DNA of 64,000 bases from Escherichia coli (GCF_003790525.1 NZ_CP033635.1), one strand, 5' to 3'. Counted from the stretch's first letter, positions 1-27,856 are shown. Numbers and translations are program-made. The notes: a model not told the origin generated them from the sequence alone.

Positions 1-515
1 GTAAGCGTGTTGATTTGCGACACCATTGCCTGCTGCTGGCTGATGATTTCCGTGCTTTGCGAGTCGATGTAATCCAGCGTGTTGTCGATACGCAACGACA
101 GCGCCCCGGCTTCGCTGATCACCTGTTCGCGCAGGGCGGAATCATCGGGGCTGGTGGTCGCTTCGTTGAGGGCGGCGAAGAAGTTATCGAAGCCGACGCT
201 CAGGCTGCTGTTATCGTCGCTCAGTACCGCTTCCAGTTGCGTGAGATACCCCTGCTGGGTGCTGTAATAGCCGTAATCGCTGGCGGCATACCACACCTGA
301 TTCACCTGATACTGGTTAGAGACGCGGCGAATGCTGTCGACCTGCACGCCGTTACCGGCGCTGTTCGGCGAACCACCGCTGGCGCCGATGGTGCTGATCT
401 CCGCCACCTGACGGGTGTAGCCCGTGGTCATGGCGTTGGCGGTGTTTTGCGCCGTGACGTTCAGCTCTACCTGCGCGGTTGATGCGCCGCTGTAGCCGAT
501 GTTAATCATGTCCAT
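1..515 (-). CDS. lfgK: Flagellar hook-associated protein 1, FlgK family (Flag-2 LfgK); N-terminal part only, gene continues past window start
   Basis: Minus-strand translation from ATG at 515-513 (AGGA RBS upstream) gives MDMINIGYSGASTAQVELNVTAQNTANAMTTGYTRQ..., a typical FlgK/FlgE-family N-terminal rod/hook domain; open to position 1. Confidence 0.8.
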   Translation of the reverse strand, partial: MDMINIGYSGASTAQVELNVTAQNTANAMTTGYTRQVAEISTIGASGGSPNSAGNGVQVDSIRRVSNQYQVNQVWYAASDYGYYSTQQGYLTQLEAVLSDDNSSLSVGFDNFFAALNEATTSPDDSALREQVISEAGALSLRIDNTLDYIDSQSTEIISQQQAMVSQINTL

Positions 516-574
516 GTTGGATCCTTACCGGTAAATCGTGCCGGTTAAAAGCGGCGTGAAGATGGGGAATCTTA

Positions 575-925
575 AGTTCCGTAAACCGGGTGCCAGACGC
601 CGGATGCAGCCTGCATACGGGCACAAACATAAAAATATGTGCGAACTCGTAGGCCTGATAAGACGCGTCAGCGTCGCATCAGGCGTTGTGCACCGATAGC
701 CGGATGCGGCGTAAACCCTTATCCGGCCTACAAACGGGCACACCCATAAAAACAGGCGCGGACCCGTAGGCCTGATAAGACGCGTCAGCGTCGCATCAGG
801 CGTTGTGCACCGATAGCCGGATGCGGCGTAAACGCCTTATCCGGCCTACAAACGGACACACGCATAAAAACAGGTGCGGACTCGTAGGCCTGATAAGACG
901 AGACAGCGTCGCATCAGGCACCGAA
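575..925. repeat. REP/BIME array: about 2.5 tandem copies of a ~120 bp unit containing oppositely oriented REP palindromes (gccggatgcggcgtaaacgccttatccggcctac / gtaggcctgataagacgcgtcagcgtcgcatcaggc)
   Basis: Direct reading: near-identical units repeated between lfgK and lfgJ. Confidence 0.9.
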
Positions 926-24650: not shown

Positions 24651-25779
24651 CAGCAGCGAAGAAAAAACAGAGAAACCCTCGGCGCAAAAGCTGCGTAAAG
24701 CGCGTGAAGAGGGGCAACTGCCGCGCTCGAAGGATATGGGGCTGGCGGCGAGCCTGTTTGCGGCGTTTGTGGTGATCTCCAGCAGCTTCCCGTGGTATGC
24801 CGATTTTGTGCGTGAGAGTTTTATCAGCGTGCATCAGTACGCGCAGGAGATTAATAACCCGGATGTGATCGGCCAGTTTCTGCGCCATCACCTGTTAATT
24901 CTCGGCAAGTTTATTCTTACCTTGCTGCCGATGCCCGCCGCCGCACTGCTCTCCTCGCTGGTGCCTGGCGGCTGGCTGTTTCTGCCGAAAAAAATCCTCC
25001 CTGATTTCAGCAAAATTAGCCCGTTAAAAGGGATTGGGCGACTGTTTTCCAGTGAGCATCTGGCGGAAACGGGAAAGATGACAGTGAAGTCGGTGGTGGT
25101 GCTGGTGATGCTGTGGGTAAGCCTGCGCAATAACTTTGCCGCCTTTCTCGGCCTGCAGGCGCTGCCGTTCAAACTGGCAATTAACGATGGTTTATCGCTC
25201 TACGCCAGCGTGATGCGCAACTTTGTCATCCTGTTTATCTTCTTTGCGCTTATCGACGTGCCGCTGGCGAAAGCCCTGTTTACCAAAGGGCTGAAGATGA
25301 CCAAGCAGGAGCTGAAAGAAGAGTACAAAAATCAGGAAGGCAAGCCGGAAGTGAAGGCGCGCGTGCGACGGCTGCAACGGCAGCTGGCGATGGGGCAAAT
25401 CCGCAAAGTGGTGCCGAAAGCCAACGTGGTGATCACCAACCCGACCCACTACGCCGTGGCGTTGCAGTATGACCAGTCTCGCGCCGCCGCGCCGTTTGTG
25501 GTGGCAAAAGGCACCGATGAAATCGCCCTCTATATTCGCCAGGTCGCCGCTGAGAATCAGGTGGAAGTGGTCGAGTTCCCGCGGCTGGCGCGCTCGGTTT
25601 ACTACACCACGCAGGTGAACCAACAAATTCCGTTTCAGCTTTACCGGGCCATCGCCCACGTTCTGACCTACGTCCTACAAATGAAACACTGGCGCGAGGG
25701 CGCACAGCCGCGCCCGGCCCTGAACAGACATATTTCCATTCCCAAAGAGGTGCTTAAACTGGATGGCGAAAACAACTAA
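24640..25779 (+). CDS. lfhB: Flagellar export apparatus protein FlhB
   Basis: 379 aa; FlhB family with NPTH autocleavage motif (NPTHYAVAL). Confidence 0.95.
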   Translation: MADSSSEEKTEKPSAQKLRKAREEGQLPRSKDMGLAASLFAAFVVISSSFPWYADFVRESFISVHQYAQEINNPDVIGQFLRHHLLILGKFILTLLPMPAAALLSSLVPGGWLFLPKKILPDFSKISPLKGIGRLFSSEHLAETGKMTVKSVVVLVMLWVSLRNNFAAFLGLQALPFKLAINDGLSLYASVMRNFVILFIFFALIDVPLAKALFTKGLKMTKQELKEEYKNQEGKPEVKARVRRLQRQLAMGQIRKVVPKANVVITNPTHYAVALQYDQSRAAAPFVVAKGTDEIALYIRQVAAENQVEVVEFPRLARSVYYTTQVNQQIPFQLYRAIAHVLTYVLQMKHWREGAQPRPALNRHISIPKEVLKLDGENN

Positions 25780-27856
25780 ATCGTTCCTCGCGCTGCTGCG
25801 CGGCGGCAATCTCGGCGTGCCGCTGGTAATACTGTGTATTCTGGCGATGGTTATTCTGCCGCTGCCGCCTGCGCTGCTGGATATTCTGTTCACCTTCAAC
25901 ATTGTGCTGGCGGTGATGGTGCTGCTGGTGGCGGTGTCGGCGAAAAGGCCGCTGGAATTCAGCCTGTTCCCGACCATTTTGCTGATCACCACTTTAATGC
26001 GCCTGACGCTCAACGTCGCCTCCACGCGCGTGGTGCTGTTACACGGGCATCTCGGCGCGGGCGCGGCGGGTAAGGTAATTGAGTCGTTTGGTCAGGTGGT
26101 GATTGGCGGCAACTTTGTCGTCGGTTTCGTGGTGTTTATCATCCTGATGATCATCAACTTTATCGTCGTCACCAAAGGGGCCGAGCGTATTTCCGAGGTT
26201 TCTGCCCGCTTTACCCTGGACGCGATGCCCGGTAAACAGATGGCGATTGACGCCGATCTTAACGCCGGATTGATCAACCAGGCGCAGGCACAAACCCGGC
26301 GTAAAGATGTTGCCAGCGAGGCCGATTTCTACGGCGCAATGGACGGGGCATCGAAGTTTGTGCGCGGCGATGCCATCGCCGGGATGATGATTCTGGCGAT
26401 CAACCTGATCGGCGGCGTCTGTATCGGGATCTTCAAATACAACCTGAGCGCCGACGCCGCCTTCCAGCAATATGTGCTGATGACTATCGGCGACGGGCTG
26501 GTGGCGCAGATCCCGTCCCTGCTGCTCTCCACCGCGGCGGCAATTATCGTCACCCGCGTCAGCGACAACGGCGATATCGCCCATGACGTGCGCCACCAGC
26601 TGCTGGCAAGTCCGTCGGTGCTCTACACCGCCACCGGGATCATGTTTGTGCTGGCGGTGGTGCCGGGGATGCCGCATCTGCCATTTTTGCTGTTCAGCGC
26701 CCTGCTTGGCTTTACCGGCTGGCGGATGAGCAAACGCCCGCAGGCGGCGGAGGCGGAGGAGAAAAGCCTCGAAACGCTGACCCGAACCATCACCGAAACC
26801 AGCGAGCAACAGGTCAGTTGGGAAACCATTCCGCTGATCGAGCCCATCAGCTTAAGCCTCGGCTACAAGCTGGTGGCGCTGGTGGACAAAGCGCAGGGGA
26901 ACCCGCTCACCCAGCGGATTCGCGGCGTGCGGCAGGTGATATCCGACGGTAACGGCGTGCTGCTGCCGGAGATCCGTATTCGGGAAAACTTCCGTCTCAA
27001 GCCCAGCCAGTACGCCATTTTCATCAACGGCATTAAGGCTGATGAAGCGGATATTCCGGCGGATAAACTGATGGCCCTGCCCTCCAGCGAAACCTACGGC
27101 GAGATTGACGGCGTACTGGGGAATGACCCGGCATATGGGATGCCGGTCACCTGGATTCAGCCTGCGCAGAAAGCGAAGGCGCTGAATATGGGGTATCAGG
27201 TGATCGACAGCGCCAGCGTGATTGCTACCCATGTAAATAAGATTGTGCGCAGCTATATTCCTGATTTATTTAACTATGACGATATTACGCAGTTGCATAA
27301 TCGTTTGTCGTCGATGGCACCGCGACTGGCGGAAGACTTAAGCGCGGCGCTCAATTACAGCCAGTTGCTGAAAGTGTATCGCGCGCTGCTGACCGAAGGC
27401 GTTTCCCTGCGCGATATCGTCACCATCGCCACCGTGCTGGTCGCCAGTAGTGCGGTGACTAAAGATCATATCCTGCTGGCGGCCGATGTGCGCCTGGCGC
27501 TGCGGCGCAGTATCACCCATCCGTTCGTTCGCAAGCAGGAGCTGACGGTGTATACGCTGAATAATGAGCTGGAAAATCTGCTGACCAACGTGGTGAATCA
27601 GGCGCAACAGGCCGGCAAAGTGATGCTCGACAGCGTGCCGGTGGACCCGAATATGCTTAACCAGTTCCAGAACACGATGCCGCAAGTGAAGGAGCAGATG
27701 AAAGCGGCGGGGAAAGACCCTGTGCTGCTGGTGCCACCGCAGTTGCGCCCTTTGCTGGCGCGCTATGCGAGATTGTTTGCGCCGGGGCTGCATGTGCTGT
27801 CGTATAACGAAGTGCCGGACGAGCTGGAGTTGAAGATTATGGGGGCGTTGATGTAG
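25763..27856 (+). CDS. lfhA: Flagellar export apparatus protein FlhA, full length
   Basis: 697 aa; FlhA family (TM domain plus cytoplasmic domain). Confidence 0.95.
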   Translation: MAKTTKSFLALLRGGNLGVPLVILCILAMVILPLPPALLDILFTFNIVLAVMVLLVAVSAKRPLEFSLFPTILLITTLMRLTLNVASTRVVLLHGHLGAGAAGKVIESFGQVVIGGNFVVGFVVFIILMIINFIVVTKGAERISEVSARFTLDAMPGKQMAIDADLNAGLINQAQAQTRRKDVASEADFYGAMDGASKFVRGDAIAGMMILAINLIGGVCIGIFKYNLSADAAFQQYVLMTIGDGLVAQIPSLLLSTAAAIIVTRVSDNGDIAHDVRHQLLASPSVLYTATGIMFVLAVVPGMPHLPFLLFSALLGFTGWRMSKRPQAAEAEEKSLETLTRTITETSEQQVSWETIPLIEPISLSLGYKLVALVDKAQGNPLTQRIRGVRQVISDGNGVLLPEIRIRENFRLKPSQYAIFINGIKADEADIPADKLMALPSSETYGEIDGVLGNDPAYGMPVTWIQPAQKAKALNMGYQVIDSASVIATHVNKIVRSYIPDLFNYDDITQLHNRLSSMAPRLAEDLSAALNYSQLLKVYRALLTEGVSLRDIVTIATVLVASSAVTKDHILLAADVRLALRRSITHPFVRKQELTVYTLNNELENLLTNVVNQAQQAGKVMLDSVPVDPNMLNQFQNTMPQVKEQMKAAGKDPVLLVPPQLRPLLARYARLFAPGLHVLSYNEVPDELELKIMGALM

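Follow-up and report, generated by a model that had tools for sequence, protein, structure and literature searches.

Lateral flagellar (laf) systems have been shown experimentally to drive swarming in Vibrio parahaemolyticus, Aeromonas hydrophila and Plesiomonas shigelloides, and a comparable gene system of Escherichia coli, Flag-2, was reportedly described by Ren et al. in 2005 (J Bacteriol 187:1430) in the enteroaggregative strain 042. The likeness of the E. coli locus to the laf systems is one of genes, and comprises a regulatory cascade leading from LafK and sigma-54 to LafS and sigma-28, the lack of a gene for FliO, a single-domain FlgJ and a dedicated stator, LafTU; a difference is found in LafK, which in E. 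coli is devoid of the N-terminal regulatory domain. Intact E. coli loci with a good lfgC gene have been reported in strains W, Crooks, EC958 and PCN033 (PMC3032704, PMC4637896, PMC4578781). The present analysis deals with a stretch of 64,000 nucleotides of E. coli DNA (the whole of which is hereafter called the window), whose positions 1-27856 are assigned, with a probability of about 0.93, to the right-hand two thirds of Flag-2, that is, of a second, lateral-type flagellar gene system, in a phylogroup F strain essentially identical to SMS-3-5.

The retention of a second flagellar system, put forward in the initial annotation of the window, is borne out by its position between rayT and dinB, by its gene order, and by the 94-100% identity of its proteins to those of 042. 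The locus is a single contiguous cluster extending from rayT (yafM) to dinB; at its right-hand end the stop codon of lfhA falls exactly at 27856, and rayT, annotated as the gene of a repetitive extragenic palindromic (REP)-associated tyrosine transposase (27968-28465, minus strand), lies 111 nt past it, so that the adjacency to rayT had been recognized correctly. When window positions 1-25000 were compared by megablast with 5426 complete E. coli genomes, the top match was the SMS-3-5 chromosome (NC_010498.1, 258042-283041, minus strand), over the full length and at a rounded identity of 100.0%; the five best database genomes have equal bit scores over this interval. A base-by-base comparison of the whole 64 kb with the SMS-3-5 RefSeq record revealed 10 isolated single-base differences (positions 196, 4709, 14088, 14900, 31786, 44182, 46564, 46676, 49953 and 63196), which in the Flag-2 region change three residues (G107V in LfgK, Q398R in LfgE and A82E in a 179-residue cargo protein discussed below) and create no stop codon; the equal bit scores suggest that the four differences located within positions 1-25000 are shared by none of the five best genomes. 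The differences could stem from a strain absent from the genome set, from a separate assembly, or from altered bases. To judge from these data, the window is an SMS-3-5-type, phylogroup F chromosome.

Because of this near-identity, the SMS-3-5 record can be used for the sequence beyond the edge of the window. Its left-hand remainder (lfgK, lfgL, lafW, lafZ, lafA-F, lafS, lafT and lafU; 13 genes) is intact throughout and 95-100% identical to 042; it includes the complete third cluster, lafWZABCDEFSTU, encoding flagellin, cap, sigma-28 factor and stator, and ends with lafU at 70 nt from dinB. All 43 genes of the SMS-3-5 locus are intact, and in that record no frameshift or missing gene is found in the part of the locus lying outside the window. 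It had been expected that lfgL and the flagellin and motor genes would be located before the first position of the window, which holds for SMS-3-5; the expectation was incomplete in that two thirds of lfgK also lie outside, this gene being cut by the window start.

The locus of 042 (NC_017626.1) occupies the same site and displays the same three-cluster order, and the core proteins of the two strains align end to end at 94-100% identity (tblastn), no core gene of the window being truncated with respect to its orthologue. The operon order proposed for the window is thus colinear with the reference, and the claim of a present and intact set of core genes withstands inspection: all 30 core reading frames lie where they had been placed and are devoid of internal stops, and nearly all of their products match, at full length, the expected flagellar family of NCBIfam, the exceptions being LfgJ, LfiM and LfgN. 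Both loci carry, in their variable region 1 (VR1), a LafV-like gene, a glycosyltransferase fusion gene and a TagD-like gene. The differences from 042 concern lfgC, which is intact here and frameshifted in 042, as published (PMC2808357); a low-GC gene pair (13030-14383), which is an addition of the present strain; a RelE/ParE-HTH (helix-turn-helix) pair of variable region 2 (VR2) of 042, which is absent here; and an array of bacterial interspersed mosaic elements (BIME) between lfgJ and lfgK, which is longer here. Strains W and Crooks, the sequence type 131 (ST131) strain EC958 and PCN033 share with the present locus an intact lfgC, a VR2 without the toxin-antitoxin pair, and sigma-54 sites before lfgB and lafB; differences are represented by three other hypothetical genes at the VR1 cargo position in the ST131 strain 751 and by a Mu prophage within the Flag-2 locus of strain W (PMC3032704).

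The constraint acting on the locus was estimated for each gene of the window as the ratio of nonsynonymous to synonymous substitution rates (dN/dS, Nei-Gojobori method) in comparisons with 042, which belongs to phylogroup D, with an ST131 strain of phylogroup B2 and with an O111:H8 strain of phylogroup B1. For the concatenated Flag-2 core, dN/dS amounts to 0.045 (042), 0.038 (ST131) and 0.039 (O111:H8), with dS values of 0.17-0.19, and to 0.026-0.035 for the flanking housekeeping genes yafL, dpaA, yafJ, lpcA and fadE. Since a core value of about 0.04 is on a par with that of the flanking housekeeping genes, the locus appears to be maintained rather than decaying; the pattern is that of a gene set under selection for function and not of a decaying remnant. 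A single RefSeq sequence, WP_000949083.1, represents flagellin LafA in strains of three phylogroups, namely SMS-3-5 (F), 042 (D) and O111:H8 (B1); the lafA gene lies outside the window (7399-8313 of the sequence L001), and the conservation of its product is striking beside the hypervariable primary flagellin FliC. Lesions do occur in individual strains, as exemplified by the lfgC frameshift of 042 and by an internal stop in flgK of the O111:H8 strain.

As the initial annotation had stated, K-12 carries remnants only, the rayT-dinB interval of the MG1655 chromosome holding just two pseudogenes, lfhA and lafU. These remnants (lfhA' and lafU', or fhiA and mbhA) occupy the same site, and their surviving sequence shows 94-96% identity to the ends of the present locus; what has been lost in K-12 is a segment of 36.8 kb between window position 26144, within lfhA, and lafU (L001, position 1843). 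The alignments of the two K-12 flanks overlap by 15 nt, indicating a deletion at a short direct repeat (microhomology), and the deletion itself is as described in the literature (PMC6993521). The Flag-2 core was found in 1274 of the 5426 complete genomes (23.5%), presence being scored as at least 80% coverage of the interior of cluster 1 (window 14793-21254), a segment that K-12-type genomes do not have; this value agrees with the 24% of E. coli strains given by De Maayer et al. in 2020 (PMC6993521), and a figure of "around 20%" due to Ren et al. is quoted in PMC4578781. The presence of an intact Flag-2 in this strain is therefore already known, the locus being well surveyed and the strain sequenced, and its recognition is a correct but ordinary observation.

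The layout of the locus was derived from the open reading frames of the window and the PGAP annotation of the matching SMS-3-5 record, families being assigned with NCBIfam. Cluster 2 (lfgNMA and lfgBCDEFGHIJKL, 14 genes) is represented by 12 complete genes at 936-9024 and by the cut lfgK, whereas lfgL is outside; both of the latter are intact in SMS-3-5. The portion of lfgK in the window (1-515, minus strand; annotated as flgK in SMS-3-5) covers the N-terminal 171 of the 458 codons of a FlgK-like hook-associated protein 1 and is 99.4% identical to 042 in amino acid sequence. The lfgBCDEFGHIJ operon (936-7406, minus strand; 97-100% amino acid identity to 042) consists of lfgJ (936-1235), encoding a protein of 99 residues with the rod-binding domain only, lfgI (1235-2335), lfgH (2350-3015), lfgG (3098-3883), lfgF (3962-4699), lfgE (4699-5901), lfgD (5924-6637), lfgC (6637-7068), with its intact frame of 143 codons, and lfgB (7071-7406), the assignments resting on NCBIfam matches, which are full-length for all but LfgJ. 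On the plus strand follow lfgA (7488-8225; P-ring chaperone, FlgA family of NCBIfam), lfgM (8305-8583; anti-sigma-28 factor, FlgM family) and lfgN (8596-9024; chaperone), the last of which matches no NCBIfam model and owes its assignment to PGAP and to an identity of 95% with the 042 orthologue.

Cluster 1 displays the order lfhAB-lfiRQPNM and lafK-lfiEFGHIJ with all of its 14 genes (14793-27856), each with an NCBIfam match. The lafK-lfiEFGHIJ operon (14793-21254, minus strand; 95-99% identity to 042) contains lfiJ (14793-15227), lfiI (15230-16567), lfiH (16560-17270), lfiG (17273-18283), lfiF (18261-19907), lfiE (19912-20253) and lafK (20268-21254), the gene of a sigma-54 activator. The divergent lfiMNPQR-lfhBA operon (21627-27856, plus strand; 98-99% identity) contains lfiM (21627-22478), whose product corresponds to the C-terminal part of FliM only, lfiN (22471-22842), lfiP (22839-23591), lfiQ (23594-23866), lfiR (23868-24650), lfhB (24640-25779), with its NPTH autocleavage site, and lfhA (25763-27856). 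Short functional motifs are retained, namely NPTH at residue 267 of LfhB, GAFTGA at residue 81 of LafK, the lipobox of LfgH, the signal peptide of LfgI and, in LafU, the context of the stator aspartate. The genes together encode a type III export gate (LfhA, LfhB and LfiPQR), an export ATPase complex (LfiHIJ), the MS ring and switch (LfiF, G, M and N), the rod, hook and L and P rings (LfgB-J and LfiE), chaperones and an anti-sigma factor (LfgA, M and N) and a master activator (LafK).

As far as regulation is concerned, LafK aligns to sigma-54 activators only from the central AAA+ domain onward (AAA+, with GAFTGA, and HTH domains), and is thus devoid of a receiver domain; flhDC is absent from the locus. 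A sigma-54 promoter motif, TGGCACAGCGATTGCT, is found on the minus strand at 7443-7458, 37 nt upstream of the lfgB start codon. It is the sole perfect match to TGGCAC-N5-TTGCW in the 64 kb of the window, where about 0.015 would be expected by chance (as calculated from the pattern length), and it is conserved in 042 and ST131; this lfgB site and one before lafB have also been reported in PCN033 (PMC4578781). Motifs with one mismatch occur before the LafV-like gene (9102-9117) and, in SMS-3-5, before lafB. When up to one mismatch is allowed, the window as a whole holds 5 motifs where 3.2 are expected, which is no enrichment; weight attaches solely to the perfect site before lfgB and to its location. 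By analogy with the lateral systems of Vibrio, Aeromonas and Plesiomonas, and with this one strong promoter motif, it can be inferred that LafK would switch on the hook-basal-body operons from sigma-54 promoters, among them that before lfgB; that the completed hook-basal body would then export the anti-sigma factor LfgM; and that this export would free the sigma-28 factor LafS, encoded outside the window, allowing expression of flagellin LafA and of the proton stator LafTU.

The description of the whole of 1-27856 as a flagellar cluster is accurate for the flagellar core; it does not apply to 9152-14790, which is VR1, located between lfgN and lfiJ and carrying five cargo genes, and several gaps within the cluster contain REP/BIME elements. 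Three of the five genes are of the modification type. A LafV-like gene (9152-10081, plus strand) encodes a protein of 309 residues with a weak match to the FliB lysine-N-methylase family (NF038110, 39 bits against a cutoff of 85) and none to Pfam; the product of the next gene (10260-12704, plus strand; 814 residues) is a fused protein, in which a GT2 glycosyltransferase domain (PF00535, E=9e-18) is joined to a domain of the TagB/F-like CDP-glycerol glycerophosphotransferase type (PF04464, E=4e-5); the last gene of the region (14395-14790, minus strand; 131 residues) encodes a TagD-like glycerol-3-phosphate cytidylyltransferase (TIGR01518, 114 bits against a cutoff of 165). No VR1 protein matched a defence system in PADLOC. 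LafV and TagD belong to the published VR1 content, and both methylation of the Flag-2 flagellin and its modification with a teichoic-acid-like glycan have been proposed (PMC6993521), with which the three genes are in keeping; the LafV-like, GT2 fusion and TagD-like proteins encoded here probably carry out the methylation of LafA and its decoration with glycosyl and glycerol-phosphate groups.

The remaining two VR1 genes are the low-GC pair mentioned above, consisting of a gene for a protein of 273 residues (13030-13851, plus strand), a putative effector, and of an overlapping gene for a partner of 179 residues with a hydrophobic N-terminus (13844-14383, plus strand), a putative immunity protein. 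The pair has a GC content of 43%, against 54-61% for the flagellar core (2-kb composition windows); neither 042 nor O111 possesses it, other genes take its place in ST131, and 127 of the 5426 genomes carry it. Only seven homologue clusters of the 273-residue protein exist among 5.8 billion proteins. In one of the loci concerned (L010), a 40%-identical homologue comes immediately behind a VgrG gene (606 bits to TIGR03361), and a partner homologue is next in line; in Superficieibacter the pair occurs alone among housekeeping genes, and in another contig it is again found in the VR1 of a Flag-2 locus. Homologues of the partner follow those of the effector in three different contexts, at 29-37% identity. 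In the window the pair is an orphan, in that it is not found beside vgrG, hcp or PAAR genes.

Pfam returned only a marginal DUF4347 match for the 273-residue protein and none for its partner. Among the homologues of the former, Ser-His109-Gly and, further on, Tyr-Gly-Cys158 are invariant. Its AlphaFold model is of low confidence (predicted local distance difference test score, pLDDT, 55), and the weak structural matches (E about 0.01) are nearly all to cysteine proteases of the caspase fold (clan CD), in which the histidine precedes the cysteine as it does here; given the pLDDT and the E values, these matches are to be regarded only as a lead. De Maayer et al. (PMC6993521) describe type VI cargo in the VR1 of other taxa, and the pair is probably an orphan type VI effector/immunity module, unrelated to flagellar function, that landed in the cargo hotspot of VR1. 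The 273-residue protein possibly represents an undescribed effector family and, if this were true, it could found a new family of caspase-fold type VI effectors.

Several gaps of the locus hold repeats. The interval between lfgJ and lfgK is extended to 420 nt here, against 175-189 nt in 042, ST131 and O111, by the largest of them, a BIME/REP array (604-951; family D1-D3) in which a unit of about 117 nt occurs three times in tandem; two of the units reach the Rfam threshold for naRNA4 (652-728 and 769-846). Further REP/BIME elements are located in gaps inside or beside the Flag-2 operons, at 3050-3091, 3898-3952, 12731-12811, 27859-27913 and 28558-28647, the last two flanking rayT. A second, GC-rich repeat, beginning CCCCTCACCCTAACCCTCTCCCC, is present at 10102-10131, in the gap before the glycosyltransferase gene, and at 21409-21438, in the lafK/lfiM divergent region; we take it to resemble the boxC-type elements of E. 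coli. Outside the locus, in the dinJ-yafQ pair, the toxin gene yafQ (29863-30140) is frameshifted after about 36 codons, dinJ being intact, as also annotated in SMS-3-5; and the tRNA-Asp site beside yafV (around 36700), at which 042 has a type VI secretion cluster along with ISAs1 elements, harbours no island here.

What the locus does in the cell has to be weighed among several explanations. That the genes are those of the primary flagellar regulon (Flag-1) misread as Flag-2 might be suggested by their PGAP names, which are of the flg, fli and flh type; this identity is rejected, and its chance is negligible, as the cluster is contiguous, lies at the rayT-dinB site and not in the flg, flh or fli regions, includes LafK without flhDC, and is 94-100% identical to the Flag-2 of 042. 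It is possible, and here proposed tentatively, that Flag-2 is in this lineage a working second flagellum, conditionally expressed in a niche outside the standard laboratory assays (such as low temperature, surfaces, or mucus of the gut or the environment): purifying selection on a level with that acting on housekeeping genes is compatible with such conditional expression, and the selection signal suggests an existing function. The data show gene identity, intactness, synteny, purifying selection and a promoter motif, and expression, assembly and motility may be inferred; several points weigh against this picture. In the one direct test of an intact locus, made under laboratory conditions in EC958 (ST131), whose lfgC is intact, no LafA was detected by western blot and no Flag-2-dependent motility was observed at 28 or 37 °C (PMC4637896); indeed, no Flag-2 locus of E. 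coli has been demonstrated to make flagella, so that the caution expressed in the initial annotation was justified. The lateral systems of Vibrio and Aeromonas require motY and maf-5, and neither gene occurs in the E. coli loci (PMC3032704). The muramidase half of LfgJ is absent and LfiM has no recognisable CheY-binding N-terminus of the LSQxEID type; a single-domain LfgJ and a C-terminal-only LfiM are characteristic of the system. Neither a sigma-54 nor a sigma-70 consensus turned up when the lafK/lfiM divergent region (21255-21626) was scanned, and a sigma-28 scan upstream of lafA gave no clear site; as all matches of the latter have 5 mismatches, no lafA promoter is claimed. Finally, the left third of the locus, outside the window, is deduced from SMS-3-5 only.

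Several of these points would fit a structurally intact but silent relic, on course in E. coli for the deletion that some three quarters of the strains have by now undergone: so would the lack of LafA and of Flag-2 motility in EC958 despite its intact locus and the missing motY, maf-5 and FlgJ muramidase domain, together with the scattered inactivating mutations of other strains (lfgC in 042, flgK in O111:H8) and the REP/BIME elements and foreign cargo accumulated within the locus. Such a relic is, nevertheless, considered rather unlikely, in view of a dN/dS of about 0.04 over 30 genes, on a par with the housekeeping neighbours and incompatible with long-term neutrality, of the integrity of 43 out of 43 genes in SMS-3-5, of a LafA identical across three phylogroups, and of the retention of the conserved sigma-54 promoter motif. 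A further proposal, due to De Maayer et al. (PMC6993521), starts from the presence in VR1 and VR2 of some taxa of genes for VgrG, Hcp, Rhs and bacteriocins, with which the putative toxin/immunity pair in VR1 of the window would agree, and sees Flag-2 as kept mainly for protein export or secretion, or as a scaffold for adhesins or antigens, rather than for motility. This is improbable: the homologue of the pair is found with VgrG, which ties it to type VI secretion instead of flagellar export, only 127 of the approximately 1274 Flag-2-positive genomes possess the pair, and purifying selection conserves the whole set of genes for hook, rings, filament, cap and stator, for which a device serving export alone would have no use.

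The value of the finding as a discovery is small, Flag-2 having been described in 2005, surveyed over 4028 genomes of Enterobacterales and encountered in intact form in about one E. coli out of four. The selection signal obtained here speaks for a use of Flag-2 by E. coli, and it singles out strains with the full set of intact genes, SMS-3-5 among them, as a suitable model and genetic background in which the function of Flag-2 could be shown.

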